NCBI GenBank assembly: GCA_035541875.1
Contig: DATKML010000024.1
Span: 5,030-69,029, forward strand
Direction of reading: 5' to 3'
From: Candidatus Binataceae bacterium
GTDB lineage: Bacteria; Desulfobacterota; Binatia; Binatales; Binataceae
Length of the DNA: 64,000 nucleotides
This document shows, piece by piece, positions 33,504-49,944 of the stretch (position 1 is the stretch's first letter; each line of letters opens with the position of its first letter). The notes beneath the pieces are model-generated. The model saw only the letters and a list, made by a program, of their open reading frames with translations. It did not search any database and was not told the DNA's origin. A program made the position numbers and the translations under genes.

Positions 33504-34100
33504 ATGAGCAATTTAGTGCCGGTCGTTGTAGAGCAGACTGGCCGCGGTGAGCGGGCCTACGACATCTACTCACGTCTCCTTAAGGACCGGATCGTCTTCC
33601 TCGGTTATCCCATCAACGACGACGTCGCTAATCTCGTTACTGCACAGTTCCTTTTCCTTGAAGCGGAAGACCCGGAAAAGGAGATCAATTTCTACATCAA
33701 TTCACCCGGCGGTTCGGTTACCGCGGGGCTCGCGATTTACGACACGATGCAGTTCATCAAGCCGCCCGTGTCGACGTTGTGCCTCGGGCAGGCCGCGAGC
33801 ATGGCGGCAATTCTGCTACTGGCCGGTGAGAAGGGTCGTCGCTACGCGCTGCCGAATTCGCGGATCATGATGCATCAGCCGCTCGGCGGGGCGCAGGGTC
33901 AGGCTACTGATATCGATATTCAAGCGAAGGAGATACTCCGTATTCGTGAGGAGCTGAACAGCATCATTGTTCGCCACACCGGACAGAATCTGCGTAAAAT
34001 TGAACGTGACACCGACCGCGACATGTTTTTAACTCCGGAACAAGCGGTTGAATACGGGCTGATCGATGAGGTAATCGTTAGCCGAAGGCCCTCCAAGTGA
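33504..34100 (+). CDS. clpP: ATP-dependent Clp protease proteolytic subunit
   Basis: [20 protein letters not shown]...[14 protein letters not shown] contains the catalytic Ser motif. Confidence 0.93.
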
Positions 34101-34115
34101 GCGGCGGGAGACAGT

Positions 34116-35366
34116 ATGGCGAAGCATGATGACCGCTCGGGCAATCTAGTTTGCTCCTTCTGCGGCAAGAGCCAGGATGAGGTTCGCAAGCTTATTGCCG
34201 GCCCCACGGTTTATATCTGTGACGAATGTATCGACCTCTGTAACGATATCATCGCGGAGGAGACCGATAACGAAGAGGCCTTCAGCCAAAGTTCGGCAGT
34301 GCCGAAGCCGGCGGAGATCAAGCGCGTACTCGATCAGTACGTGATTGGGCAGGAGCGTGCGAAGAAGATCCTCTCCGTTGCGGTCCACAACCATTACAAA
34401 CGTATCGATTCGCAGAGCGTGACCGGCGAGGTCGAGCTCCAGAAATCAAATATCATGCTGATCGGGCCGACCGGCGTGGGCAAAACCCTGCTTGCGCAGA
34501 CACTGGCCCGCTTCCTCCAGGTTCCGTTCACGATTGCCGACGCTACCTCGCTCACTGAGGCCGGCTACGTCGGTGAAGACGTCGAAAATATCATCCTCTC
34601 ACTGCTGCAGAACGCCGATTACGATATCGAGCGATGCCAGCGCGGTATCGTTTATATCGACGAAATCGACAAGATTGCGCGCAAAGGCGATAACCCTTCG
34701 ATCACGCGCGACGTATCGGGCGAGGGCGTACAGCAGGCGCTGCTGAAGATCGTCGAAGGAACGATGGCGAGTGTGCCGCCTAAGGGTGGCCGCAAGCATC
34801 CCCAGCAGGAGTTCCTGCAGGTCGATACCACCAATATCCTCTTCATCTGTGGCGGTGCTTTCGTCGGCCTCGAAGACATTATCCGTCGACGACTGGCGGG
34901 CAAGACGATGGGCTTCCGCGCCGATCTGACGAATCGTGATCCGCGCACCGTATCCGAACTGCTTGCTGAGACGCAGCCGGAAGATCTGCTGCGCTTTGGT
35001 TTGATTCCTGAATTCGTCGGGCGCCTGCCGGTAATTGCGACCCTGGGCGAACTCGATGAAGACGCACTCGTGCGGATCCTGATGGAACCGAAGAACGCGT
35101 TGGTGCGGCAGTATCAGAAACTGTTCGAGATGGAGAACGTCCACCTGAAATTTGCTCAGGGTGCACTGAAAGCCATCGCGCGCGAGGCGCTCAAGCGCAA
35201 GTCTGGTGCGCGCGGACTTCGTGCTATCATGGAAGCCATCATGGTGGATTTGATGTACGACATTCCGTCCCAACCCAATATTAAGGAGGTCATGATCTCG
35301 GAGGAGGTTGTTACCCAGAAGGAGCAGCCATTACTCGTCTATCAAAAGACCGCTGAGACCGCTTAA
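34116..35366 (+). CDS. clpX: ATP-dependent Clp protease ATP-binding subunit ClpX
   Basis: N-terminal C4 zinc finger (CSFCGKS...CDEC) and a Walker A motif GPTGVGKT. Confidence 0.93.
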
Positions 35367-35392
35367 GCGGTAGGAGACCGGGATAAACGGAA

Positions 35393-37873
35393 ATGCTTTT
35401 CCGCAACGATAAGAAAGACAATCGCGACCCCGCGAACGAAGCTGTTCCACTGCTGCCGCTCCGTGAGCTGATCGTATTTCCTCACGAGGTTTATCCGATC
35501 TTCGTCGGCCGCCAAAAGTCCATCAAGGCACTTGAGGCTGCCGAATCGAGCAAGAAACCGATTCTACTGGTGGCGCAGAAAGACGCGCGCGTCTCTGAAC
35601 CCGGTCCGGCCGATATCTATAGCGTCGGCACGCTGGGAACGGTGGTGCAGTTGCTGCGTCTGCCGGACGGGACCGTGAAGGCCTTGCTCGAAGGTAAGAA
35701 GCGTGCGCGCATTCAGCGTTACGTCGCGCAGGACGACTTCTTCCAGGTCGAGGTCGAAGAGATAGAAGAGACCTCCGAACGCGGGACTGAAGTCGAAGCG
35801 TTGATGCGCTCGGTCAATACCGCCTTCGATAACTACGTCCGCCTCAACAAGAAGATTCCGCCCGAGATGGTGACGTCGATCGCTTCGGTCGATGATCCGG
35901 CTTATCTCGCCGACAAGCTGGTCGGTCATCTCGGCATCAAGCTCGAAGACAAACAATCGCTGCTCGAATGCTTCAACCCTGCGGAACGCCTGGAGCGCAT
36001 CCTTGGCTACATGCGTTCGGAGTTGGAGATTCTCGAAGTCGAAAAACGCATCCGCTCCCGGGTTAAGAAGCAGATGGAGAAGACCCAGAAGGAGTACTAC
36101 CTCAACGAGCAGATGCGCGCGATTCAGAAAGAGCTCGGCGAGAAAGACGAATTCAAGAACGAGATCCAGGAGCTCGAAGAAAAACTCCGCCAAAAGAAGA
36201 TGTCGGCGGAGGCGCGTGATAAGTGCGAACGCGAGATCAAGAAGCTTAAGATGATGTCGCCGATGTCCGCTGAGGCGACAGTCGTTCGTAACTATCTCGA
36301 TTGGTTCCTGGCGCTGCCTTGGTTTGAACACACCGAGGATAAGCTCGATATCCAGGAAGCCGAGGGCGTTCTCGAAGAAGACCACTTCGGCCTCGAGAAG
36401 GTTAAAGAGCGTATCCTTGAGTACTTGGCGGTGCAGACGCTGGTCGGCCAGCTCAAGGGACCGATTCTCTGCCTAGTTGGACCTCCGGGGGTTGGTAAGA
36501 CCTCGCTCGGTAAGTCGATCGCACGAGCGACCGGCCGCAAGTTCGTCCGCGTATCGCTCGGCGGCGTGCGCGACGAAGCGGAAATCCGGGGCCATCGCCG
36601 GACCTATATCGGCGCACTGCCCGGCAAGATTATCCAGTCGCTCCGCAAGGCGGGTTCGGGCAATCCAGTTATTCTGCTCGACGAGGTCGACAAGATGTCG
36701 ACCGATTTCCGCGGTGACCCGTCGTCGGCATTGCTGGAAGTGCTGGATCCCGAGCAGAACAGCACCTTCAACGACCACTACCTCGATTGTGACTACGATC
36801 TGTCGAAGGTGATGTTCGTGACGACCGCGAACGCACTCGAGCGTATCCCGCGGCCGTTGCAGGATCGTATGGAGATCATCCGTATCCCGGGCTATACCGA
36901 GGCGGAAAAACTCCAGATCGCGAAGAAGTACCTGATCAAGAAGCAGATCGAGGCTAACGGTCTAAAAGAAGAGAACATCGAGTTCTCCGACAAGGCTCTG
37001 CTTTCGATTATCCGTAACTACACGCGCGAGGCAGGGGTTCGTAATCTAGAGCGCGAAGTCGCTTCGATCTGCCGCAAGGCCGCAGTCGAAGTGGTTAAGA
37101 CGGATCGCAATGCCCATGTGAAGGTGTCCCAGTCGAGCCTCGCCAAGTTTCTCGGGCCTTACAAGTTCCGTTTTGGCGTTGCCGAGGCGGAGCCACAGGT
37201 CGGTGTTGCTACCGGCCTTGCCTGGACCGAACTTGGTGGCGAGCTGCTCAATGTCGAAGTCACGATCCTGCCGGGTCGCGGCAAGCTGACTATTACAGGC
37301 CAGCTTGGCGAAGTGATGCAGGAGAGCGCGCAGGCAGCGCTATCGTACGTGCGGTCGCGCTCGGAACAACTCGGCCTGCGTCCGGACTTCTATCAGAAGA
37401 TCGATATTCATATTCACATTCCTGAGGGAGCGATTCCCAAGGACGGTCCGTCTGCAGGTATCACACTCGCGACGGCCCTTGTCTCGTCGCTCTGCCGAGT
37501 GCCGGTTAAGAACGACCTTGCGATGACGGGTGAAATCACTCTGCGCGGACGCGTTCTGCCGATCGGCGGGTTGAAGGAAAAGGTGATGGCGGCGCATCGC
37601 GGCGGAATCAAGACCGTGCTGATGCCCAAGGAGAACGAGAAAGATATCGAAGAAATTCCAGCTCCGGTCCTCAAGGGCGTTACGCTCGTGCGGGTCGAGC
37701 ATATGGACGAGGTGTTGAAGCAGGCACTCACGCTGACTGATCCTGAGACCTTCCTGAAGCCGGCAACAGGGGAGAGTGCGCCAATCATTTACACGGACTC
37801 TGACAAGGAAGAGCCGTCCGTAGATGAGGACGACGAGACGGTTGTGCCGCACAATCCGCCGAATCTGTCCTAG
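35393..37873 (+). CDS. lon: Lon protease
   Basis: LON N-domain, GPPGVGKTS Walker A and the catalytic PKDGPSAG serine region, 826 aa. Confidence 0.93.
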
Positions 37874-37897
37874 GTTGTAATGTAAACCGCGTCTGTT

Positions 37898-37939
37898 GGG
37901 GCGGACCGGCCAGTCGCAGCGGTCCGCCCTATTTTTTCC
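37898..37939 (+). terminator. Rho-independent terminator downstream of lon
   Basis: GGGCGGACCG...CGGTCCGCCC stem followed by TATTTTTTCC. Confidence 0.6.
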
Positions 37940-37986
37940 GGGGGAAAACATAGCCGAGGGGAGGCCTGTTCAAGGCGACGCGTCAC

Positions 37987-38292
37987 ATGACAAAAGCCGA
38001 TTTGATAGAAGCTCTGGCGAACAAATTGGGGATCAATCGCGGGGAAGCCGAAAAGGCGGTTAATATCGTGCTCGACGATATCGTTAATGCGCTCCATCAA
38101 GGTGAGCGCGTTAACATCTCCGGATTCGGCACCTTCTCGGTATCGACGCGTCAGGCGCGTACCGGGCGAAATCCCAAAACGGGCGAATCGATCGAGATTG
38201 CGGCCAGTCGCTCAGCCAAGTTCAAGCCTGGCAAGCAACTTAAGGACTCACTGAACGATAGCGTAGCGGCTTCAGCCTCAGCAGCGGACTAG
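37987..38292 (+). CDS. hup: HU family DNA-binding protein
   Basis: MTKADLIEALANKLG...GFGTFSVSTRQARTGRNPKTGESIEI is HU/IHF-fold. Confidence 0.9.
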   Translation: MTKADLIEALANKLGINRGEAEKAVNIVLDDIVNALHQGERVNISGFGTFSVSTRQARTGRNPKTGESIEIAASRSAKFKPGKQLKDSLNDSVAASASAAD

Positions 38293-38344
38293 CTACACAG
38301 CCCCGGTCCAAGCACAGGACCGGACGAACTCAATTCAGCACGAT

Positions 38345-38383
38345 ACGGGCGGTTAGCTCAGCGGTAGAGCATCGGCCTTACAA
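38345..38383 (+). repeat. attL: 5'-half copy of tRNA-Val (39-bp direct repeat of the intact tRNA-Val at 49868-49906)
   Basis: ACGGGCGGTTAGCTCAGCGGTAGAGCATCGGCCTTACAA is identical at both sites. The left copy lacks the 3' half of the anticodon stem and the T arm, so it is not a functional tRNA. Confidence 0.8.
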
Positions 38384-38397
38384 TCGGATACGTCATC

Positions 38398-38427
38398 CTA
38401 TCTGGCGTTATCTAGGGCTATCTGGCT
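38398..38427 (+). repeat. Three tandem 10-bp repeats (CTATCTGGCG / TTATCTAGGG / CTATCTGGCT) just inside attL, candidate integrase arm-type sites
   Basis: Direct repeats read from the sequence, positioned within 15 bp of the att core on the element side. Confidence 0.4.
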
Positions 38428-38471
38428 AGCAAAAACGGGCCTTTTCTCGATTTGAGATTACGTCGGATTAC

Positions 38472-39296
38472 CTACGGTTCGCTCGAACTGGGCACTGAAC
38501 TGGGCAGAGGAAGCCGTTGCCTGCCGACTTTCAGCGTTGGTGATGACCTCTTGGAGCGGCCTCGCCGAGAGTTTTCTAGTGAGGAAAACACAGCGGCATC
38601 TAGGACACATGGGTATACCCTACACGCTTCGCACAACTCGCGAATACTTTTTAGTACAAATTTATAAAAATTTGGATCGGCGAGCGCGGCAGCGGTGATT
38701 TTAATCGGATAATATAGTTCCTCGTTCAGCCATCTTGTCACGCGACTGTCTAGTGGTATCTCATATCTGGTCAAATGCAATTCTTGCAAGACGTTCCTAG
38801 ACTGTTTGGGTCCGAATCCACGCAGATGACGAGCGATGTAATCGGCTACTTGCTCCTCAACTTGCCAGGAGACCAGCGAGGTTAGTCGATTGCATCGTTC
38901 AAGAATTTGATCTCACGCGTTGTCCTTTCGCAACCTATGCCAGTTTTCAGCTAGGTCCGATGGGATTTTGCGTTTGAACCGTTTCAAGTTGTGGTCTTCA
39001 AAGACCTGCTTGATAAACTCTTCGACGTTTTCCTCTAGCCCAATAGCCGCATAGCTGAGTGGAAATGGCTGCTGTTTGGAAAACAGAGTAACCGCACTCT
39101 CTGGTCCCGAATCTTGAAGCGTAGTAAGCCGCATCTTTACCAGAACTTCCCAAAATCGCTCGCGTGTAACCTCCGCCTTGTTGTCGACGACGTTCATATG
39201 TTGCCGTTCTATGACCAAGAGCGCTTCGGCCTGAGCTGTTACTAGGTTATGGACGTTGTCCAAATCGGCTTGTTCTATGACGAATTGAAGTTTCAT
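38472..39296 (-). pseudogene. Ogg2-family N-glycosylase/DNA lyase (HhH-GPD) interrupted by a single in-frame TGA
   Basis: Track ORFs 38913-39332 and 38472-38789 share a frame and are separated only by TGA at 38913-38915. Continuous translation gives ...KRFKRKIPSDLAENWHRLRKDNA*DQILERCN...LRGFGPKQSRNVLQELHLTRYEIPLDSRV... with a helix-hairpin-helix and catalytic Asp, alignable to archaeal-type Ogg2. The 3' tail runs into repeat DNA near attL. Confidence 0.5.
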
Positions 39297-39394
39297 TTCA
39301 AATTGTCTCCTCAATGTGCGGTGCCGATGCAACTCAAAAACTCTGTAACCTTCATCTCTTCGTCTGCTATCGCGTCCAAAATGTACAACCGGTC

Positions 39395-40141
39395 CTAGGA
39401 TCTCGCGCGTACCCTAGCGTCAACAATCCTCAGAAGATGATTTGCGAGTAAAACAATCTCTAGAGCTTCGGCGGGATCGTCGAGATTTACATCGCGGTGA
39501 GAATGCGGATTTTTATACGAACCGATGGCGCCCGCGAAGAGATTAGCGCGCGCCTCCTTCTCTCCTTGCTCGACCGACGAATCGGTGAGCGCGCCAGTTT
39601 TGGGGTCGAAAGCCTTTCTCATGAGAGTCACGCCGAGTTGGTCGTTGCCAAGACTGGCGGCCTCGCGAACGGCAACTTCCACCGCCTTCATCGCGACAAA
39701 CACCGCCACATCGTATTCGCCTCGCAGAAAAGCTTTCCAGACTGAGTCGTATATCTTTGGCTGGAGAATTTCGCGAGGGAGTAGCTTTGAAGTCCTGAAT
39801 TCCGAGAATTGGGCTCTCGTTGTGATTTTTCGGGCACGGCGGCTGAGCCGCATATTGGCGCTTTGACCCATATCCGGTACAGCGAGTCCCTGCGCCTTCA
39901 ACCATGCCCACGCTTCAGAGAATGCCAAGGTAACTTCCGGCCATGACGGTTCCGGGTACGGTACTGCGACGAAACCGCTTTGAATTCGCCTCCTAAGATC
40001 GAAAGTTGATTCTTGAACTGAAGAGTTTGGAAAGTGGTTCTGCCACAGAAGGATCAATGTTTCTCCGAGTTCCTCGGGTTCCATGGCGAGGAGGATCTTC
40101 TCGTCTTGGATTTTTCGGCATACTTCGTCAAATAGGTCCAC
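39395..40141 (-). CDS. Hypoth_Ymh (TIGR02391) HEPN-type domain protein, Abi-like
   Basis: The C-terminal ~110 aa (LQPKIYDSVWKAFLRGEYDVAVFVAMKAVEVAVRE...LFAGAIGSYKNPHSHRDVNLDDPAEALEIVLLANHLLRIVD) match the conserved Ymh family. N-terminal ~130 aa unassigned. Confidence 0.6.
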   Translation of the reverse strand: MDLFDEVCRKIQDEKILLAMEPEELGETLILLWQNHFPNSSVQESTFDLRRRIQSGFVAVPYPEPSWPEVTLAFSEAWAWLKAQGLAVPDMGQSANMRLSRRARKITTRAQFSEFRTSKLLPREILQPKIYDSVWKAFLRGEYDVAVFVAMKAVEVAVREAASLGNDQLGVTLMRKAFDPKTGALTDSSVEQGEKEARANLFAGAIGSYKNPHSHRDVNLDDPAEALEIVLLANHLLRIVDARVRARS

Positions 40142-40327
40142 GGCCTCAGCATAGTATATTAAGCGCCCAACAGATGCCTTGTTCGCCGTCGGGCCGAGAG
40201 CGGCTTTCGTAGCATCGGCCCGTTTAGCCGATGACCTGGAAAAACTCTAATCAGGTAAAAGCCTCTTAAAGGCCAGTGCCCAATCGCTGGCCACTCTCAT
40301 CATAGGCACTCTTAGCCGTAAAGATCG

Positions 40328-40356
40328 AAAAAACCCCGGCAGGGTTTCTACCGGGG
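40328..40356 (-). terminator. Rho-independent terminator after the zinc-finger gene (minus strand)
   Basis: CCCCGG...CCGGGG stem with a T-run on the minus strand, directly after the stop at 40379. Confidence 0.55.
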
Positions 40357-40378
40357 TTCTAGGTGGAACCAGATGGGC

Positions 40379-40642
40379 TCAGGCAGCAGCAACCGTCGGG
40401 GTCGTAGCCTTGGCGGCGCGGCGCGCCTTTTGAGTTTCAGCCGCCACTTGCGCCTGATCCGCTGCGACCTTGGAGGCGTGCTCGGCAACCGCGCGATCCA
40501 GTTCACGCTTTTCGGCCTTCGCGCGGCGACGATCCTTGGCGCAATCCAAGCAATGCTGGGAAATGTCATACACGCGAGTGTTCTTGGCCGTCCGCAGATG
40601 GCCGCGTTGGCAATGGGTGGTTGCCCGTTTCCCGTCGCTCAA
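40379..40642 (-). CDS. Phage-type small zinc-finger protein (HNH-like Cys/His motif)
   Basis: THCQRGHLRTAKNTRVYDISQHCLDCAKDRRR resembles the CxxGH...N...CxxC small HNH-like proteins of temperate phages, with a basic C-terminal tail. Confidence 0.5.
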   Translation of the reverse strand: MSDGKRATTHCQRGHLRTAKNTRVYDISQHCLDCAKDRRRAKAEKRELDRAVAEHASKVAADQAQVAAETQKARRAAKATTPTVAAA

Positions 40643-41023
40643 CCGCGCTGCCGGGTTGTCCTTCGCTGGTGGGACAGCCTTGGCCTTCCTACGACGGCCC
40701 TTCGTCGTGGGTTAGGCGGCAACCGGGGTCTGCTGCGGCTCATGCTGGGTTTCGACCGTTGGCGTCGCCTCGGCTACGGGTTCCGGCGTCGGACCGATGG
40801 GCGTCGCTGGCAAACTGGGCGTGATCGCCTCGATGGCGGGCTGCGGGTTTGTGATTTGGTTCTGGGGTTTGCGTGATTTTACCATGTGCGTGACCTCCTG
40901 ATGCTGTGTGTTATCCGTGAGTGAACGCACTAGAGCAAGAACCAAGCGTTGGGTTTTCGCAGGAGGGGGAGTCGGAAGGCGAAAAGATTTCTAGTGCATT
41001 AGACGCGCCGCTGGTTAAACTAC

Positions 41024-41569
41024 TTGCTAATGGGGCGGCGTAAAGCGAAATTCACAACGACACTATTCCTAACCGGGATCGCGCTCAGCGGGAGCGGATG
41101 TATGACTATGATCGAACATCACCGCCGGGCGACCATCGAGAACAACGATCTCGCGGCGCGCAAAGCCTGCCTCGACCTTCCCACAGAGCAGATTTCCGAT
41201 TGCCTCGCGCAGGCCAAAGCGGCCAACGATCAGGCGGTGGCCGACGAATTGAAATTCGAGCACCACGTTGAGGTGACGCGCGAAGTCGTCGGCGGGTTGG
41301 CTGGCGGCCTGTCACAGGGCGCGCAATCGTTCGCGCAATCACGGCAGAACGTGATCGACACCCAACAACGACTCGACGAATCGTTCAACTCCAGCGGCGG
41401 GATGCGAATCGATCCACCACCACCGCCCGATCTGCCGACGTTCAACGGCGGACGGCCGGTTCAGGTGGGCGATCCTGTTCCTGATCGTCCGGGGTGGGTT
41501 CACGGACCCAATAACACCGAGGTGCCCTTACCTCCCGAGCCTGCGCCAGTTGGTACTTTCGGCCAGTAG
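41024..41569 (+). CDS. Hypothetical secreted protein or lipoprotein with a Pro-rich C-terminus
   Basis: Signal peptide ending LSGSGC (imperfect lipobox). Pro-rich tail PPPPPDLPTF...PLPPEPAP. Confidence 0.45.
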   Translation: MLMGRRKAKFTTTLFLTGIALSGSGCMTMIEHHRRATIENNDLAARKACLDLPTEQISDCLAQAKAANDQAVADELKFEHHVEVTREVVGGLAGGLSQGAQSFAQSRQNVIDTQQRLDESFNSSGGMRIDPPPPPDLPTFNGGRPVQVGDPVPDRPGWVHGPNNTEVPLPPEPAPVGTFGQ

Positions 41570-41604
41570 GCCGCGCGTTATCGGCTTTATCTGTTTGCGA
41601 GTGC

Positions 41605-41647
41605 AAAAAGGTTGCCGGGGCGCAGGCAGGAGAACCGACGCCCCGGC
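41605..41647 (-). terminator. Rho-independent terminator (minus strand) after the small ORF 41688-41891
   Basis: GCCGGGGCG...CGCCCCGGC stem with an A-run on the plus strand (a T-run on the minus strand). Confidence 0.5.
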
Positions 41648-41687
41648 GTGGTCGCGTCGAACGAGGATGATCGCGCGACCGAGATTG

Positions 41688-41891
41688 TTACGCCGTAAGC
41701 GCGACGATGTTCCATCCCTGTGACAAATACGACGCGAGCTGGTTATTGCCCAGCTTGGCCGTCGTTGAGTCGAATGTGTATTGACCGCTGCTCGGCGCAA
41801 CCTCGACGCCGCTGTACCAGATCGGATTCAAACTGTACGTCGCGGGCGGAGCCAACGTGACGGACGTATAATTCGGATTCGGTGAAGCCAT
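41688..41891 (-). CDS. Small hypothetical protein (67 aa)
   Basis: Followed by its own terminator. Composition is Ser/Thr/Asn-rich and non-repetitive. Confidence 0.35.
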   Translation of the reverse strand: MASPNPNYTSVTLAPPATYSLNPIWYSGVEVAPSSGQYTFDSTTAKLGNNQLASYLSQGWNIVALTA

Positions 41892-41943
41892 AATTTTTCT
41901 CCCTTTGAAGCGCCGCGATGGCGCGATTGAGTAGCATCGACAT

Positions 41944-42348
41944 CTATTTCAATAGACCCATTTGATCGCGTTCGGACGCGCTGAACTCCGCGCGGAGGCA
42001 TTTCTGGAGCGCCCTCGCGGCCTCCGCGTCGGACGTATAGGTTCCCTGCGCTGCCTTCTGGATGACCCGTTTGAGCCGGGCGTTGCGAGCGTTCCGGGTT
42101 GCGGTTCCGGCATGGATCACGGCGACCCCGGCGGCCATGCGAATCTTCTCGGCCCGTTCATCGGCATCCAACCCACCCAGCCCGGATATTGATGCCGATT
42201 TGGTGATCCGCCCGAGATGGCCGGGATTCGATTGGCCTGTACGTTGTGGAACCAGCCGGGCACGGGCTTCCGCGAATGAACGCCGCGAATCGCGCTTCTC
42301 TAAAGCCGTGAAGCCGCTCGGATTATCCGGGCGATCAACCAGCACCAC
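41944..42348 (-). CDS. Hypothetical protein (island cargo; start uncertain, frame stays open upstream without an ATG)
   Basis: A 134-aa ORF. In-frame upstream extension reads TVHFVGIDQFNRVVLVDRP, so the true start may be a GTG. Confidence 0.35.
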   Translation of the reverse strand: MVLVDRPDNPSGFTALEKRDSRRSFAEARARLVPQRTGQSNPGHLGRITKSASISGLGGLDADERAEKIRMAAGVAVIHAGTATRNARNARLKRVIQKAAQGTYTSDAEAARALQKCLRAEFSASERDQMGLLK

Positions 42349-42471
42349 GCGGTTGAATTGATCGATGCCAACGAAATGAACCGTGCCGCCGCGGCCTTGG
42401 CGAGGGCGGCCTCGTTCTCAATCTCAAACGTCAGCCCGTCCGTCGTGGTAATGACGCGGCCCTCGGTCCGT

Positions 42472-42687
42472 TTAATCTGGTGGTACTGCATTTGCTCGTT
42501 CCTTTTCATCGATCAGGTCGGTGCCGTGATCGACCAGCAAGATGTTTTTGATCTCGGGGTGTTCTCGGTGAAAAATTGCCTCGGCCTCGTCGCGATTGGC
42601 GGCCAAGATCCCGATGTAAGGCGGCCACGTCAGCCAAACACCGCCGCCGGGGCGGTGCCATAGATGGGCGGTCAAAATCCGGCTCAT
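42472..42687 (-). CDS. Hypothetical protein (about 71 aa from MSRILTAHLWHRPGGG...)
   Basis: The distal part of track ORF 42472-42816 looks protein-like. The Arg/Gly-rich upstream extension looks non-coding. Confidence 0.3.
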   Translation of the reverse strand: MSRILTAHLWHRPGGGVWLTWPPYIGILAANRDEAEAIFHREHPEIKNILLVDHGTDLIDEKERANAVPPD

Positions 42688-42859
42688 CCCTTCGGCTCCT
42701 CGGTCCGTTCCACGTCGGATGATTCCTTCGCGGCAGCCACCCGCTGCTCGATTTCCGTGGGGCTTAGTTCCCGCACGGGTCCGTTCTTGCGCTGAAATCG
42801 ACGCGTGAACCGGCACCGGTAAATTCCGTTATTCGCTAATTGCCGGGGCGATCGTGGTG

Positions 42860-43093
42860 TCACGCGACCGCTCCTTGCGGCCCGGCGGCCAACGCCTTGA
42901 GCCAACGCGCACGACGAGGCGCAGCCAATTCACCGACCAGCCAATCCACAAGGGACGGCAACGCGAAGGCGTTGAATCGGGCGTTGATAGGCGTAACCGA
43001 AGGGCCACGGGATTGGTGGCGTAACCGCCATAACCCAACCCGCGTGATCCCGAGAATGCTAGTTAAATCGGCCGTCGATGCGATTGCGTCCAT
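42860..43093 (-). CDS. AlpA/excisionase-family helix-turn-helix regulator
   Basis: MDAIASTADLTSILGITRVGLWRL is a canonical AlpA-type HTH. Confidence 0.6.
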   Translation of the reverse strand: MDAIASTADLTSILGITRVGLWRLRHQSRGPSVTPINARFNAFALPSLVDWLVGELAAPRRARWLKALAAGPQGAVA

Positions 43094-43457
43094 CGTGACA
43101 AGATGTTAGCAACGTCGTTCCATTCCTTGAAGGGGCGGCTCGATATCCGGGCGGCCCCGAGAAAACCGAGGCACACAAACGCCGTGTGTGCCCGTTTCCA
43201 ACCCGCCTTGGCATCCTTGCCCGAGGCTCGTTCCCGCAATTCGGCCAGCGTAGCCAGCCATCGAAGACCGTCGCGTTCCGGCAACCTCTGTCATCGCTAA
43301 AAAACCTATCGCTAACCCTGTCTGCCGGTTAGCCTTTGGCGATAATGGAACTCACACCGGTTCACCAGTTCGGCGATTGGTACGCCAAGCGAGAAGACTT
43401 GGCCTATTACGTCAACGACGAAACCTCGAGCGGCTCTAAGGTTCGCCAATATGAGCG

Positions 43458-44249
43458 ATGATCGCGGCAACGCCCGGCACGCTAATCGTTGGGTGTTCGG
43501 CGGCGTCGGCGATGCAGGTTTACGTTGCTGATTGTGCCAACCGGCACGGCCTACCGGGCATTGTGTATGTTGCCGGGCGCAAGAAACCGACGCCATCAAC
43601 CAAATACGCCATGACGGCCGGGGTTGATGTTCGGCCCGTAAGTCCGGGCTACCTCACAACCGTTCGAGCGAGAGCGCGCGCCGAGGCGCTAAGAATCGGC
43701 GGGTGTGTCGGGTGGAGCGAATCGACGGCCAAAGAGGACACCGCAGCCCAGTGCGCCAACATTCCGGACGATGTGAAGCGTATCGTGGTGCCGACGGGAT
43801 CGGGGGCTACGCTGAAGGGGATCGTTGATGGCATGAAGCGCCTCGGGCGCAGCGTGCCGATTCTGGCCGTTGCCGTTTCCGGTATGTACGAAGACGTTGA
43901 TGGTGTAGAGGCGATCCACCTAACCCGCGATTACGACGACGAAGAGGCCGCCATATTACCCGACGGAAGCTATCTCGATCCCTATTACGCCGCAAAGGCG
44001 CTCAAGTTCGTCCGCCCCGGCGATTGTTTGTGGGTATCGGGTAGGCGCTCGATCTTGGCGATCAAGAAAATCACGCGCACCAAAATAGAACTCCTGCGCA
44101 AGAACCCAACGTTAGGACGTTGGCGTGATTCCAAATGCACCACGTTGCTATCGGGGGCTCAGCAGCGGGCCGACAATCGATCCGGGGCCGAACCGCTGCT
44201 GGACGGTTCCGCGAATACTTGTGGCCATCATATCGAGGGCCTTGGTTGA
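43458..44249 (+). pseudogene. Fragment of a fold-type II PLP enzyme (ACC deaminase / D-cysteine desulfhydrase family) lacking the N-terminal PLP-lysine region
   Basis: KRIVVPTGSGATLKGIVDGMKRLG matches the glycine-rich loop and LDPYYAAKALKFVRPGDCLWVSGG matches the LDPVYTGKA...HTGG motif. The N-terminal ~100 aa are missing. The 3' end overlaps the convergent terL by ~100 bp. Confidence 0.45.
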
Positions 44250-45896
44250 CGCGGGCGCTGGATCGGCTTCCTTCATAGGCGGTCCGTCCGGTTCCGGGCA
44301 CGGACCCCGATGCCAGAACCTCGCGCCGCCGTCGGTGAGGTAGTTTTTCTCCATCACGGGCCGTTTGCATTTGCCGCAGATACGTTCTCGGCGGATCAGG
44401 TTTTGCACGATCTCCGATTCCCGCCGCTCGACGCCGGGTACGCGCAGCCCAACCGCCACGGCGGCCCACTGAGATGCGTCCATGCCCCGTTGCCCTTCTT
44501 GGACCGCACCCAGCGCGGCCTGCGCCAACGCAACAATCACGTCGATTTTATGCGACGTTTTCTCCTTCGCGATGCGCCACCCACGGGTGGTTTCCAAGGC
44601 GACACAGCGCGAGATCGATAGGCGCATATCGGCGTCGGGGTACAGGATCAAATTCGCGCCCTTGATGATTTCGTACAGGTTGGAACTGGCTTCCGTGAGG
44701 TTCGGCACCGACTGCGGAAATTCGATCATCGGCAACCCGTTCCCGCGAAGGCGCTGCGCTACGGCCACAAGCTGGTACGGATCATATCGCACCTCGCGGA
44801 TGCTGAACCGGGTTCGCATCTCCAACAGGGTGCGCTCGATGGTCGCCTCGAAGTCGAGCGGATCGTCCGGCGATGGCTGGAAAATCCGATGCCAAACGAG
44901 CCGCACCTTCTTGGCGTCGCGATCCCAGCCGCAAACCACGATCGCGGTGCTATCGCGTTTGACCGATGCGTCAACGCCAACCCAGACGGGAAGCCGTTGA
45001 TCGGCCAGGATGGGATGTAGCGCCGAATCGACGCAAGCGTCCCACCACTCGATGGGTACGAACTCCGATTCTGACGTCACCCACCTGTTTTCAACGTGGC
45101 GAAGGTAGGCGTTTTGCCTAGTAGATTGGCGCATCTGTTCGCGCCACGCATCGGTTTGCCACGGAGCCGGACCGGTATGCGTCCAATACGCCAACATTCC
45201 GGGCTGCTCGTACAAATCCGGGCCGACCACCTTCCCGGCGATCCCGCGTTTGTAGAGCCCTTCGAGCAACTCGGATTCGCCCTCGAAGCCTGCATAGGTG
45301 ACGGTTAAGCGCCCGGATACCTTGCGCGTGGGTGAAAACACGCCCTCATCCCACAACCTATGCGAGGCCTCCGATGCGAACGCCCACAATTCGTCCCACA
45401 CGGTTAGCGTCGGGTTCGCCCCTGCGAAGCCCTTGAAATCGTTCGCGACGGCCGAGATGAACGCGCCGGTCGAAATGAACGTGATCCGATCCGCCGTTAC
45501 CTTGGCGGAGTTTCGCAGCAGGGGCGACGCTTGAACGATCCTGGCGGCGGCTTGGAACACGCGACCAACGGCCTGATCGTAATCGTTCGCGAGGGCGTAT
45601 ACCTCGGCGTAGGGGCCGCCGATCACCACGGCGACGTAGATTGCGACCATCGCGGCTAGGGCGGTTTTGCCGGATTTCTTCGGCGCTGAGTAGAGCATCT
45701 CCGGGAACGGCAAACGGCCGTCCGGCGTCAAAACGAGAGCGCGGCGCAGGAACTCGATTTCGGCAGCGTACAACTCGAAGGGTGATCCCGTTTCCGGGTT
45801 GATCGAAACCTCATGGACGAAGGCTACCGGATCTGCGCGCCAACGAGCCGCAGCCTTGGCCTGTTCACTCGATGGGTTCGGCTTGCTTGATGGCAC
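44148..45896 (-). CDS. terL: Phage terminase large subunit
   Basis: Walker A-like APKKSGKTALAAM, Walker B TVWDELW, RNase H-like nuclease region VWVGVDASVKRD, and a C-terminal Cys cluster CGKCKRP...HRGPCPE. Confidence 0.75.
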   Translation of the reverse strand: MPSSKPNPSSEQAKAAARWRADPVAFVHEVSINPETGSPFELYAAEIEFLRRALVLTPDGRLPFPEMLYSAPKKSGKTALAAMVAIYVAVVIGGPYAEVYALANDYDQAVGRVFQAAARIVQASPLLRNSAKVTADRITFISTGAFISAVANDFKGFAGANPTLTVWDELWAFASEASHRLWDEGVFSPTRKVSGRLTVTYAGFEGESELLEGLYKRGIAGKVVGPDLYEQPGMLAYWTHTGPAPWQTDAWREQMRQSTRQNAYLRHVENRWVTSESEFVPIEWWDACVDSALHPILADQRLPVWVGVDASVKRDSTAIVVCGWDRDAKKVRLVWHRIFQPSPDDPLDFEATIERTLLEMRTRFSIREVRYDPYQLVAVAQRLRGNGLPMIEFPQSVPNLTEASSNLYEIIKGANLILYPDADMRLSISRCVALETTRGWRIAKEKTSHKIDVIVALAQAALGAVQEGQRGMDASQWAAVAVGLRVPGVERRESEIVQNLIRRERICGKCKRPVMEKNYLTDGGARFWHRGPCPEPDGPPMKEADPAPASTKALDMMATSIRGTVQQRFGPGSIVGPLLSPR

Positions 45897-46326
45897 GGTC
45901 CTTCTCCTCGGCAGCGGCGTTCAACGCGGCAAACTCACCGGCCAGATCCCTTCCCTTGTCGGACAACCCGGCTAGCTGCCTACGGGCTGCCGGGGTTAGC
46001 CCTAGTTCGCGGGCAATGGTTAGCTGCGCCGCCCGCAGCGCCCGATATTCGCCGAGGAGTTTCCGGGGTTCACCCTGATCGGTCGTCGGACCCTCGTCGC
46101 GCAGGCGTCCGTAGATAACGGTGGCGAGGATTTCAAGCTCGCACCATGCTCGGGCAGCCGGGCCGTCGCTATCGACCAACCACGGGCAGGCGCGGCGCAT
46201 CTTACCGAGCAGGTGATAAACCCGACGATCCCGGACGGCAACACCCTTCTTCAAGGCGACATATAGGCTTCTGGTGTTGTTCTTCGCCATTACAAACCCC
46301 GTGCGGATCACTGTAACCAGCGTCAA
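45865..46326 (-). CDS. terS: Phage terminase small subunit, P27 family
   Basis: ARELGLTPAARRQL and the overall layout match P27-family TerS. It overlaps the terL start, and the true start may be MAKNNT (46290). Confidence 0.6.
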   Translation of the reverse strand: MTLVTVIRTGFVMAKNNTRSLYVALKKGVAVRDRRVYHLLGKMRRACPWLVDSDGPAARAWCELEILATVIYGRLRDEGPTTDQGEPRKLLGEYRALRAAQLTIARELGLTPAARRQLAGLSDKGRDLAGEFAALNAAAEEKDRAIKQAEPIE

Positions 46327-46535
46327 CCAAAGCTGTAAGCAGCGCCGCCCGAAGCTGGTCGCAAGGCGTAGATTATCGAAGGGATGGCCAGCGACTGGGC
46401 ACTGGCATCAAAAAGCCTTTGACTTTATTGAGGTTTTTCGGCGTTATCGGTTTTGATGGCCGATGTACTGTTGAACGGGGCTTTGACAAGATAGCCGGAC
46501 CCCACAAATCCTCTGATTGCGCCATTCTCCCGTTC

Positions 46536-46712
46536 ATGAAGCAGCATCACACCGAGCGCGAACAGCGCTTTCTCGATCTTGCTAGTACCCTAGCCAACGA
46601 GTTCGCGCCTCGCTCCGCCAAGTACGATACCGAAGAAGCTTTTCCCTTAGAGAATTACGCCCAGTTGAGAATCTCTTCATTGACTCGGGTTGTTCATTCA
46701 TGCCAGATCTGA
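46536..46712 (+). pseudogene. N-terminal remnant of an acyl-CoA dehydrogenase
   Basis: MKQHHTEREQRFLDLASTLANEFAPRSAKYDTEEAFPLENYAQLR is a typical ACAD N-terminus, then degenerates and terminates after ~58 aa. Confidence 0.45.
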
Positions 46713-46760
46713 TGCCGCTAGTCTTTACGTACTCCCGTTCGCTGCGAGAGGAGGATTCTA

Positions 46761-47297
46761 ATGAGCCCGGAAACCATTCACGACAAGTTACGGCTCTACC
46801 CCGTGATTGCGTCAATAGTCTTCTTCTGCTTGGTAAAGTCGGCGTTTGCGGCCGGGCCCGTAACGTCGCCATTCACTGCTACAGGTTCTGGCGTGAGTGC
46901 GGGCGCTCTAAGCACATGTTCACAGTGCACTACTGGCCACACGTGTATATGCGTGCCTCTTAGCGGTACGGGCAAAGCTAGCGTGATTGGCACAGTGAAT
47001 TGGACGACAACGGTGGTTCTCGACGAAACCAACCCAGAGGCAGGTGACTGCATCGATACGTACGGCACGGTAACGCTAACGGCCAAGAGCAGCTCCAAAA
47101 ACGCTCTTTCGATAGATTATCATGGTTTTGAGTGCTCGGTAGGCACCAATTACACCCTCAACGGAACGTACGTGATCAATCCCGCCAACTCTACGGGAAA
47201 ATTCCTAAACTACAAAGGCTCGGGGAACCTAGCCGGCAGCGAGGATTCCAACAGCGACATTTTGGGTAACCTAAGCGGTACAATCCAAACGCCGTAA
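46761..47297 (+). CDS. Secreted Cys-rich hypothetical protein
   Basis: Signal peptide (cleavage after SAFA), Cys/Thr/Gly-rich mature region, locally lower GC. Confidence 0.5.
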   Translation: MSPETIHDKLRLYPVIASIVFFCLVKSAFAAGPVTSPFTATGSGVSAGALSTCSQCTTGHTCICVPLSGTGKASVIGTVNWTTTVVLDETNPEAGDCIDTYGTVTLTAKSSSKNALSIDYHGFECSVGTNYTLNGTYVINPANSTGKFLNYKGSGNLAGSEDSNSDILGNLSGTIQTP

Positions 47298-47315
47298 ACC
47301 CATCCACCCACCGAG

Positions 47316-47346
47316 CAAAAGCGTAAGCCGCGCTACCGATGGGCGC
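47316..47346. terminator. Bidirectional hairpin terminator between convergent genes
   Basis: Perfect inverted repeat GTAAGCCGCGC...GCGCGGCTTAC with T-rich flanks on both strands. Confidence 0.55.
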
Positions 47347-47357
47347 GGCTTACTTTC

Positions 47358-47741
47358 TTATGAACACAACGCCGGAGCCGAGTCGCTGCTCCTGTACCAT
47401 AGCCAGCGCGCGCCAAGATTTTCACCTGAGTCAAAAACGGAGTCGACAAACTTGGTAGTTGCTAAGTACGGCTTTTCTATAATCGTGATCGAAAACTGCC
47501 AAATCGTCCCTTCGTCCAGCGCGTCCATCAACTTATTGGCTATCTCCGCGACTTTCGACGCGGGCTGAATCTCGTTCGCATGTATTTCGGGCACTCCGAG
47601 CTCGGCCCTATAACCGTTCAGAACGGAACTGACGATTGGCTCGATATCGTCAACTGACAGAATCGCTCCTTGGCGATAGAAGGCAGGAGGAGCAAAGATG
47701 TTCTTCCCGCTGTGCCCACTCTCGTCCGCGTAAATGTGCAT
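47358..47741 (-). CDS. DUF3800 family protein, short form (127 aa)
   Basis: N-terminal MHIYADESGHSG (the IYxDESG motif) and ELGVPEIHANEI (the EIHAxE motif). Full-length family members are usually about 220-260 aa. Confidence 0.55.
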   Translation of the reverse strand: MHIYADESGHSGKNIFAPPAFYRQGAILSVDDIEPIVSSVLNGYRAELGVPEIHANEIQPASKVAEIANKLMDALDEGTIWQFSITIIEKPYLATTKFVDSVFDSGENLGARWLWYRSSDSAPALCS

Positions 47742-48174
47742 TAAGGTCCTCTAAAAACGAACTGAATTCAAAATGATCGGCCATTGGAGCTGGGCCCGTT
47801 AGTAACCTATTGGGCGCTCCTCCCCAAGCAAGGCTGAGAATTAGCGCTTCCGTGCCGTCAAGGAGCCGGATCCGATACGTCCTCTCGGTCGTGGTAGCGC
47901 TTGAGATAGATCAGTACGTCTTGGTGAACGCGAGTGACGCCTTTACCCTTACGCTTGATAAGCGCGGCCGCCCTCATCGGTGCTGACAAAAAAGCCGTCG
48001 CCAAAGTTGATACCTGAACAAGCTCGCAACCTGCGAGCATAAAATTCACCCGCATTTCGACTTCGCGCTTTTCGACTTCGGGCTTGGGGAATTTGTAGGG
48101 ACGACGCCCCTAAGGGTAATAGAAACTCGATTTTCCTCCATCCCTGACGCTACAGTTCTGTCTAGGAGATTAAC

Positions 48175-48591
48175 ATGAAGCTAGCGCTGATTCACAATCG
48201 CGACGATCAAGGGTATTGCCGGGCATGCGAAGCCCTATCCGAGGCGTTCGGTGTCGGATTCTGCCGAACCGATGGATCGCACGTCAGGTTAACCGAGCTG
48301 GTTGCCGAATCCGATCTCGCGCAAACCCTATGCAATGAAACCCGGCTGATGGCAATCCTACGGCTAACCTCGCTCGCCTCGAATCTGGCCGCCGGGATGG
48401 CCGAGGATCAGCCTCGATCATCGGAACCCGCGCCCCTGATCGATGCAGCGCAAATGGCGAAGCACCTGAACTTACCGGAGTCGTGGGTGCGTAGCGAACA
48501 GCGCGCAGGGCGAATTCCGTTTGTCCAAGCCGGGCGATACGTGCGTTTCAACGCCGCCGAGGTTGAGGCGGCCATCCGGCAGCGGAGCTAA
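48175..48591 (+). CDS. xis: Excisionase-family DNA-binding protein
   Basis: C-terminal LIDAAQMAKHLNLPESWVRSEQRAGRIPFVQAGRYVRFNAAEVEAAI is a MerR-like excisionase HTH. It lies directly upstream of int, with AGGAGA RBS. Confidence 0.6.
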   Translation: MKLALIHNRDDQGYCRACEALSEAFGVGFCRTDGSHVRLTELVAESDLAQTLCNETRLMAILRLTSLASNLAAGMAEDQPRSSEPAPLIDAAQMAKHLNLPESWVRSEQRAGRIPFVQAGRYVRFNAAEVEAAIRQRS

Positions 48592-48682
48592 CCAAATGGC
48601 AAAGATCCAAAAACATCACGGCGACGGATGCGATCAGAAGAATTGCGACTGCCCGTACAGGCTCGATTATTGACCGCTCGGT

Positions 48683-49831
48683 ATGAACGGCCCACGCAAA
48701 CGGATCGAGTTCCCCACGAAGAAGGCTGCCGAGAAGTTCCTTGCGGAGACGGCACACAAGGCATCACGGGGCGAATACATCGATCCCGGCAAGGTGCCAC
48801 TATTCACCGTGGTGGCGGAGCAATGGTTTCGCTCCAAGGTAGATTTCCGGCCGTCTCACGTTGTCGATCTCCGAGGCCGCCTCGACAAGCATTTGATCCC
48901 GGCGTTCGGATCGCGGCGGCTCGATGAGATCCGTGTGATTGATATCGAGAAGCTCCGAGATGATCTACGCGACAACGGTCACGCGCGCACCACGGTTAAC
49001 CGCGCTGTCCAGATCGTGAACGCTATCTTCAAGTTGGCTATTCGGCAGGGGCGTTGCGCTATCAATCCAACGGAGCGGGTAGATCGGATCAAACAAACCG
49101 CAGCCGAGATCCGGCTCGACGACGATGGCGACGATCCGACGCCGGATGACATCCTGAACCCGGACGAGATTCGACGGTTGCTCGACGCTGCTATTCCGGG
49201 GTTTGATCGCAGGTTGTTCATGATGGCCTTCGTTTCCGGTGCACGCCAAGGCGAACTATTCGCGCTTCAATGGACGGACATCGAGCTGCCCAAGGACGGC
49301 AGCGCAGCAGGGCGGATGCACATCAGGCGCACACTATCGTGGAGCCACCCCAAGGGCGAATCGCCGCGCCCACGATTCTATCCACCCAAAACCAAGGCAG
49401 GCCTACGATCCATCGAGATCCCACCTGGATTAGTTGCGGCCCTGAAGCGCTGGAAGCTCCAATGCCCGGCGTCGCCTATCGGGCTTGTGTTCCCACGATC
49501 AGATGGGCAGCCTATGTACCGTGAATTTATGCTCCGTCGGCGTTTCTATCCGGCCCTCAACCGCGCGCGCTTGCGCCGCGTTCGATTCCATTCCCTGCGC
49601 CATTCATGCGCGTCCGCTATGATCGCGGCAGGGGCGTCGATCACCGAGGTCCAGCATCATCTCGGACACGCATCCCCGGCTATGACGCTGGGCACCTATT
49701 CCCATTGGTTCCGAAACGCCGAGGGTAGCGGGGCGGTCCAGCGCTTGAGCCGGATGGTCGCCGAGGGGAACTGGGCAGAAACTGGGCACTTGAATGAATC
49801 GGATTCTGCCGAAGAGGCGGTTTCAGCTTGA
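48683..49831 (+). CDS. int: Tyrosine-type site-specific integrase
   Basis: C-terminal catalytic region HSLRHSCASAMIAAGASITEVQHHLGHASPAMTLGTYSHW (R..HxxR..Y). It ends 38 bp before tRNA-Val. Confidence 0.88.
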   Translation: MNGPRKRIEFPTKKAAEKFLAETAHKASRGEYIDPGKVPLFTVVAEQWFRSKVDFRPSHVVDLRGRLDKHLIPAFGSRRLDEIRVIDIEKLRDDLRDNGHARTTVNRAVQIVNAIFKLAIRQGRCAINPTERVDRIKQTAAEIRLDDDGDDPTPDDILNPDEIRRLLDAAIPGFDRRLFMMAFVSGARQGELFALQWTDIELPKDGSAAGRMHIRRTLSWSHPKGESPRPRFYPPKTKAGLRSIEIPPGLVAALKRWKLQCPASPIGLVFPRSDGQPMYREFMLRRRFYPALNRARLRRVRFHSLRHSCASAMIAAGASITEVQHHLGHASPAMTLGTYSHWFRNAEGSGAVQRLSRMVAEGNWAETGHLNESDSAEEAVSA

Positions 49832-49869
49832 AAAAAGCCTCGATAAATCGGAGGCTTAGCTGACTCGAC

Positions 49870-49944
49870 GGGCGGTTAGCTCAGCGGTAGAGCATCGGCC
49901 TTACAAGCCGAGGGTCGCAGGTTCGAAACCTGCACCGCCCACCA
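49870..49944 (+). tRNA. tRNA-Val (anticodon TAC)
   Basis: GGGCGGT acceptor stem pairing with ACCGCCC, D-loop AGCTCAGCGGTAGAGC, anticodon loop CTTACAA, T-arm GGTTCGAAACC, and an encoded CCA. The 5' half is the attR copy of the direct repeat. Confidence 0.9.

Follow-up and report, generated by a model that had tools for sequence, protein, structure and literature searches.

The window analyzed here, a 64-kb stretch of DNA, comes from a bacterium whose Lon relatives (83 to 86% identity) place it in Candidatus Binataceae. On its minus strand lies a reading frame of 275 codons, which begins with an ATG at 39296-39294, ends with a stop codon at 38474-38472, and contains a single internal stop, a TGA at 38915-38913 (TCA on the plus strand). 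The original prediction had described this arrangement as two open reading frames (ORFs) that share a frame and are split only by the TGA, and its coordinates proved exact once read on the minus strand. The motifs it had quoted were also recovered: GFGPKQSRN lies at 38819-38793, IPLDSR includes Asp183 at 38750-38748, and the RFKRK segment occupies the position of GIRFSNR in a relative, a stretch that is matched by GVRFHNRK in an archaeal Ogg of solved structure. If termination is normal, a 127-codon N-terminal fragment is the expected sole product. The next in-frame ATG, GTG, or TTG on the 3' side of the TGA is a TTG at 38789, 41 codons on and already past the catalytic Lys164. The features of the locus, in window coordinates, are as follows.

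38347-38383, plus strand: attL, 37 nt that repeat the 5' half of tRNA-Val(tac)
38384-49869, no strand: integrative element of 11.5 kb, strain-variable and either satellite-like or a prophage remnant, with empty sites in contigs L085 and L086
38472-39296, minus strand: reading frame of an Ogg2-fold DNA glycosylase, very probably a pseudogene; 275 codons, counting both the internal TGA and the terminal stop
38475-38585, minus strand: 37-aa nonhomologous C-terminal tail; pLDDT below 50 over residues 250-273
38748-38750, minus strand: codon of Asp183 (in IPLDSR), which aligns with the catalytic Asp of Ogg2
38793-38819, minus strand: helix-hairpin-helix (HhH) motif GFGPKQSRN, with Lys164 (38805-38807) at the position of the catalytic Lys in solved Ogg2 enzymes
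38913-38915, minus strand: in-frame TGA at the codon of family-invariant Trp128 (TGG); Trp in 81 of 81 homologues, TGA shared by contigs L083 and L084
38916-39296, minus strand: 127-codon N-terminal fragment, without the HhH motif and the catalytic residues
39307-39312, minus strand: GAGGAG Shine-Dalgarno sequence, read from the sequence, 10 nt 5' of the ATG
39395-40141, minus strand: Hypoth_Ymh/TIGR02391 protein with a HEPN-like C-terminal domain (Pfam E value of 2e-26), upstream neighbor of the glycosylase gene
40379-40642, minus strand: small HNH-endonuclease-like ORF (PHROG 826, E value of 7e-7)
44148-45896, minus strand: terminase large subunit (TerL)
45865-46326, minus strand: terminase small subunit (TerS), weak match
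48175-48591, plus strand: HTH_17 excisionase-like protein
48683-49831, plus strand: tyrosine integrase; the gene stops 38 nt short of the tRNA
49870-49906, plus strand: attR, the identical 37 nt, forming the 5' half of an intact tRNA-Val (49870-49944)

The interrupted gene lies at the edge of a tRNA-Val integrative element

As had been proposed from the first reading of the sequence, the glycosylase gene is carried on a phage-like integrated element and stands beside a HEPN-type gene. The element encodes an integrase, an excisionase-like protein, TerS, and TerL, and the glycosylase gene sits at its attL edge, adjoining the Ymh/TIGR02391 gene. The Ymh protein gave weak PADLOC matches to Aga_HEPN and PD-Lambda-3_B, and the position that we take to be that of the R-x4-6-H HEPN motif reads YKNPHSH, with Lys for Arg. 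No portal, capsid, or tail genes were found in the 11.5-kb element, possibly a prophage with deletions or else a phage satellite. The 3' end of terL is overlapped by an ORF on the plus strand (43458-44249) that resembles PALP at a sub-threshold score.

The features that mark a tRNA-targeting integrative element were all found, in that the integrase gene adjoins a tRNA gene, the att repeats are derived from that tRNA, and relatives possess an empty site. Two contigs from strains that are 99.5 to 99.8% identical carry an empty attB (L085, 8954-8991; L086, 5575-5613), where HU runs straight into the tRNA gene. Since the insert is missing from such closely related strains, the element is strain-variable. 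Comparison of window positions 33913-44296 with contig L083 showed that the island part (5.9 kb) is identical and that the adjoining 4.5-kb lon/clpX flank differs at 4 sites, a pattern which suggests that the element may be younger than the strain split, or may have moved between strains, already carrying the TGA.

We also noted that the att core corresponds to nt 1 to 37 of tRNA-Val, through the anticodon loop, and that the integrase gene reads toward the 5' end of the tRNA. It follows from this core and orientation that the working tRNA takes its 5' half, and the region upstream of it, from the element, a less usual arrangement.

The stop falls on a tryptophan conserved throughout the family

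Translated through the stop, the product matched 457 proteins of approximately 250 aa, with a best E value of 1e-68 and 55% identity to the best homologue. For half-by-half matching and alignment with MAFFT, we used the 81 family members that were recovered from genome loci (L002 to L082). The N-terminal half of the query (127 aa) matched residues 1 to 122 and the C-terminal half (146 aa) matched residues 121 to 230, colinearly in all 81 members, and the two ORFs are thus not a chance juxtaposition.

In the MAFFT alignment, the column of the stop holds Trp in every one of the 81 homologues, and in an alignment of 24 sequences the stop falls on the nearly invariant Trp of a G-E-W motif. The codon is TGG at each of the 49 loci where tblastn placed the stop column unambiguously, and none of the 81 homologues has TGA at this position. 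The residue that the TGA replaces, which the original prediction had proposed to establish by alignment, is therefore a tryptophan, and its view that the stop lies on a conserved residue rather than in a linker was borne out. The stop would be explained most simply by a single G-to-A transition that changed TGG to TGA.

Aside from the stop, the query retains 14 of the 15 fully invariant columns of the family and 35 of the 37 columns in which conservation reaches at least 95%. Of the two deviations from the latter set, one (H174) is common to the query and its closest intact relative, P0001, and the remaining query-specific deviations are conservative (F/Y, I/L, and E/D). With the conserved columns kept and the deviations this mild, the lesion looks recent. 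No intact TGG allele came to light when JGI metagenomes were scanned with NNN in place of the stop, so that our assignment of TGG as the ancestral codon draws on distant relatives.

A comparable lesion is present elsewhere in the family. In the homologue from Methyloligella solikamskensis CCUG 61697, an isolate genome (L007, 6001-6750), a conserved Gln is replaced by an in-frame TAA (RLTSI*RSGP). This independent stop fits a picture in which the gene is dispensable and decays by single nonsense hits that would recur within the glycosylase family.

The C terminus of the query differs from that of its relatives, as its 37-aa tail, which ends in Pro, stands in place of the conserved DGxxWTxxNxx[FWY] end of the family. 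No frameshifted remnant of the conserved tail was found in the other frames. The aberrant tail is possibly a second lesion and sign of decay, or else a lineage variant; because about a fifth of family members also have variant C-terminal ends, we treat it as only a possible sign of decay.

The same TGA is present in other assemblies

One alternative is that the stop is a sequencing or assembly error, the true codon being TGG and the gene intact. Such an error would require just one base difference, and the gene otherwise looks intact. Nevertheless, gene calls on three further public contigs include an identical 127-aa truncated ORF, and we read two of these contigs. The first (L084), which Logan assembled from run SRR8879131, matches the window with 100% identity up to its end at the att repeat and has the same TGA. 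The second (L083), an 84.7-kb contig from ENA (ERZ27256510), also has the TGA and shows 4 differences from the window, all of them in lon/clpX. The assemblies that share the TGA may go back to a single study and to samples that are related to one another. One would not expect a random consensus error to turn up again in an independent Logan assembly and in a contig with SNPs elsewhere, which makes a plain error very unlikely. Judging from these assemblies, then, the TGA appears to be a real allele and not a sequencing error, and a mixture of TGG and TGA within the population is formally possible.

TGA is an ordinary stop codon in the window

Among the long ORFs in the window, TGA is the commonest stop (23 of 50); it terminates clpP as well as two genes of the element, those for the integrase and TerS. 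The sole tRNA gene in the 64 kb is that for tRNA-Val, with no suppressor tRNA in the window, and the host genes for tRNA-Trp and RF2 are located outside it. UGA-to-Trp reassignment is recognized by a suppressor tRNA(UCA), by the loss of RF2, and by the absence of UGA from the ends of coding sequences, and 0.5% of bacterial genomes, belonging to four phyla, use such a code, RF2 and UGA stops both having been lost (PMC13092985). Both signs that can be read within the window point the other way, as UGA is in use as a stop and no suppressor tRNA is encoded. With TGA serving as an ordinary stop and no extra tRNA in the window, we ruled out code reassignment as well as a phage suppressor.

Functional read-through of an otherwise standard code is a separate matter. 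Under this explanation, UGA would be read as Trp by near-cognate tRNA-Trp, or by a variant of it with a 4-bp anticodon stem, and the stop would act as an attenuator that holds a potentially toxic glycosylase at a low level. The change from TGG to TGA is the only nonsense change from which the wild-type residue can be regained through misreading by tRNA-Trp, the gene is otherwise intact down to a strong Shine-Dalgarno sequence, and approximately 6.5% of standard-code bacteria have tRNA-Trp only in the 4-bp-stem form, which reads UGA in Escherichia coli (PMC13092985). These points are opposed by the uniform absence of TGA from the Trp codon of the homologues, by the heavy use of TGA as a stop and the lack of a suppressor tRNA in the window, and by the narrow range of the known reassignments. 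In addition, we found no stimulatory structure on the 3' side of the stop: the 70 nt that follow the UGA fold no better than shuffled sequence (z = 0.15), and no Rfam family, SECIS models included, matched positions 38200-40300 at an E value of ≤1. We consider functional read-through unlikely, while tolerated low-level read-through is possible in a gene with one lesion in an otherwise conserved sequence.

The same searches bear on selenocysteine, for which the original prediction had suggested looking for SECIS-like structures; no such structure emerged from either the Rfam search or the folding comparison. That the in-frame stop happens to be UGA is what would recommend insertion of selenocysteine. 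Apart from the unremarkable 3' sequence and the lack of a match to any bacterial SECIS family, the homologous residue is always Trp and never Cys, and the position is distant from the active-site Lys and Asp. Selenocysteine is thus effectively refuted, and we assign it a negligible probability.

Finally, the gene could be a deliberately split enzyme whose N- and C-terminal polypeptides assemble, as might be supposed from the good conservation of both parts. Because the TTG at 38789 lies beyond the HhH motif and Lys164, the second polypeptide would lack both, and no homologue is split. In the absence of a usable restart codon after the TGA we ruled out this arrangement, which we regard as highly improbable.

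Of the three origins that had been proposed for the TGA, a recent nonsense mutation is supported by these results, whereas a sequencing error is made unlikely by the recurrence of the stop in other assemblies and recoding as selenocysteine or tryptophan found no support.

The predicted fold is that of Ogg2 glycosylases

The query had no match in Pfam, NCBIfam, PHROGs, PADLOC, or the sequences of the PDB, and a profile of the family searched against PDB sequences found no glycosylase. The fold was therefore established by structure prediction. An AlphaFold2 model built on the family alignment (pLDDT 88.5, pTM 0.83) had as its top PDB matches in Foldseek the Ogg2 structures of MjaOgg (3knt and 3fhf), Thermotoga TM1821 (3n0u), and SsoOgg (3fhg), each with a probability of 1.0, TM scores of 0.73 to 0.76 normalized to the target, and 13 to 17% identity. 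OGG1, MutY, and EndoIII ranked below these enzymes. The model has the two-domain, all-helical HhH-GPD fold, which spans about 205 aa in Ogg2 and approximately 250 aa, with extra segments, in the query.

The catalytic residues were placed by a weak phmmer alignment (E value of 0.012) between a relative, P0115, and PDB entry 9o00, in which GFGPKQSRN falls on GLGMKEASH and IPIDSR on IIDRH. Two deposited variants, 9o02 (K to S) and 9o01 (D to N), carry their changes at the aligned Lys and Asp, which correspond to the catalytic pair K129 and D147 of MjaOgg (PMC5069365). The Lys and Asp of this dyad, Lys164 and Asp183 in the query, are invariant across the family. According to the model and the alignments, the query has both the fold and the Lys/Asp dyad of a bifunctional HhH glycosylase, and we infer that the full-length ancestor was a bifunctional glycosylase/AP-lyase.

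Other features set the family apart from Ogg2 proper. The query matches neither of the curated Ogg2 models, PF22175 (cutoff of 27 bits) and NF002305 (cutoff of 183 bits). Only 3 of 24 relatives reached PF22175 at all, all of them below threshold (best, 25.6 versus 27 bits), and P0115 scored 29.6 bits against the NF002305 cutoff of 183. In MjaOgg, His133, four residues after the catalytic Lys, stacks on 8-oxoguanine (8-oxoG), and the C-terminal Lys207 discriminates 8-oxoG from G (PMC5069365). The first of these positions is Asn in all 76 family members compared (N168 in the query), and the last residue is F, W, or Y in 50 of 78 members and Lys in 5 of 78. Trp128 itself lies in a 15-residue segment that lacks an Ogg2 counterpart in the alignment of P0115 with 9o00, the sole sequence alignment to a solved Ogg and a weak one. 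The claim that the product aligns with Ogg2 along its length therefore held for the fold, the HhH motif, the Lys, and the Asp and was overstated as to length-wise alignment, there being no match to a curated Ogg2 or HhH-GPD model.

The sub-threshold scores, the Asn in place of His133, and the C terminus that seldom ends in Lys indicate that these proteins form a distinct, uncharacterized family with a predicted Ogg2 fold, for which 8-oxoG should not be assumed to be the substrate. As a signature, its members combine invariant GFGPKQxRN and EIPxDxR motifs with Asn at the His133 position and an aromatic C terminus.

The family is bacterial and shows no consistent defense neighborhood

The glycosylase family is bacterial and is spread over many phyla. 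Relatives are encoded on 2 of the 2.9 million contigs in IMG/VR and in none of 50,697 GenBank phage records, and we therefore rejected the idea of a typical phage gene. A two-gene system of Ymh and the glycosylase was likewise ruled out, because Ymh adjoins the homologue at none of 80 loci and no other neighbor is conserved.

Indeed, no neighbor family recurs in more than three to four of the homologue loci. Among the occasional neighbors are transposases, AAA_15/AriA-like ATPases, Nmad2 domains, and a type I methyltransferase. Counting the genes immediately on either side of the homologue at the loci L002 to L082, an Nmad2 (nucleotide-modification-associated) protein, which is also a PADLOC mad3 match, adjoins it at three loci, and AAA_15/AriA-like ATPases do so at two. 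The Nmad2 and AriA-like neighbors are weak hints of a DNA-modification or defense context for some members. The family as a whole has no PADLOC match and no consistent defense-island neighborhood.

Discussion

We conclude that the locus is very probably an ordinary, recent nonsense pseudogene, in which TGG became TGA at the codon of invariant Trp128 in a gene carried as mobile-element cargo in Binataceae. What probability remains belongs mainly to tolerated read-through and to an undetected error or polymorphism. From sequence comparison we infer that the ancestor read TGG and that the mutation is recent. In the sequence of events that we propose, a recent G-to-A transition would have turned the Trp128 codon of an Ogg2-fold glycosylase gene from TGG into TGA. 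Because the host uses TGA as its commonest stop, translation would end after 127 residues, before the HhH motif, Lys164, and Asp183, and the truncated product would be unable to act as a glycosylase. If any full-length protein is still made, its only source would presumably be the ordinary misreading, at a low level, of UGA by tRNA-Trp, with the Trp restored. The gene itself would be nonessential cargo, decaying at the attL edge of the tRNA-Val element.

An annotation of the locus should join the two ORFs into a single entry, a pseudogene of an HhH/Ogg2-fold glycosylase, without counting the TGA as evidence for selenocysteine or for code reassignment in Binatia. The analysis also yielded two by-products. 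One is a widespread bacterial family of approximately 250 aa with a predicted Ogg2 fold and altered lesion-recognition residues, for which Pfam, NCBIfam, PHROG, and PADLOC have no model; the other is a small, cleanly delimited, strain-variable tRNA-Val integrative element. We regard the glycosylase family and the element's use of the 5' half of the tRNA as mildly noteworthy, and nothing else.

Compared with other nonsense pseudogenes among prophage and island cargo, this case looks familiar: the accessory gene is intact but for one premature stop, and the element that carries it is strain-variable. Nothing essential differs, except that a change from TGG to TGA can be partly masked by misreading by tRNA-Trp.

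With the Ogg2 enzymes (3KNT/3FHF, 3FHG, and 3N0U; PF22175 and NF002305), the family shares the all-helical two-domain fold, an HhH motif after which the catalytic Lys (GxGxK) and Asp (I-D) come at equal spacing, and a GxRF sequence in the N-terminal domain. Unlike those enzymes, its members are approximately 45 residues longer, with an N-terminal extension and the insert that holds invariant Trp128. They also have Asn for His133 and usually an aromatic C terminus for Lys207, and both their identity to Ogg2 and their scores are low, at 13 to 17% and below the curated thresholds.

A further comparison is with Brig1, a defensive DNA glycosylase of the uracil-DNA-glycosylase (UDG) superfamily rather than the HhH class (PMC11078745). 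Like Brig1, the gene described here is a stand-alone glycosylase gene in a variable, mobile context, in this case next to a HEPN-type gene at the end of a prophage. A leaky stop might, through misreading by tRNA-Trp, keep a harmful element-borne glycosylase at a trace level, and the enzyme may then excise a purine other than 8-oxoG, perhaps one modified by a phage, as a Brig1-like defense alongside the HEPN-type gene; we give this scenario only a slim chance. In contrast to Brig1, with its UDG superfamily fold, the family is of the HhH type, has no PADLOC match, and is almost absent from viral collections.
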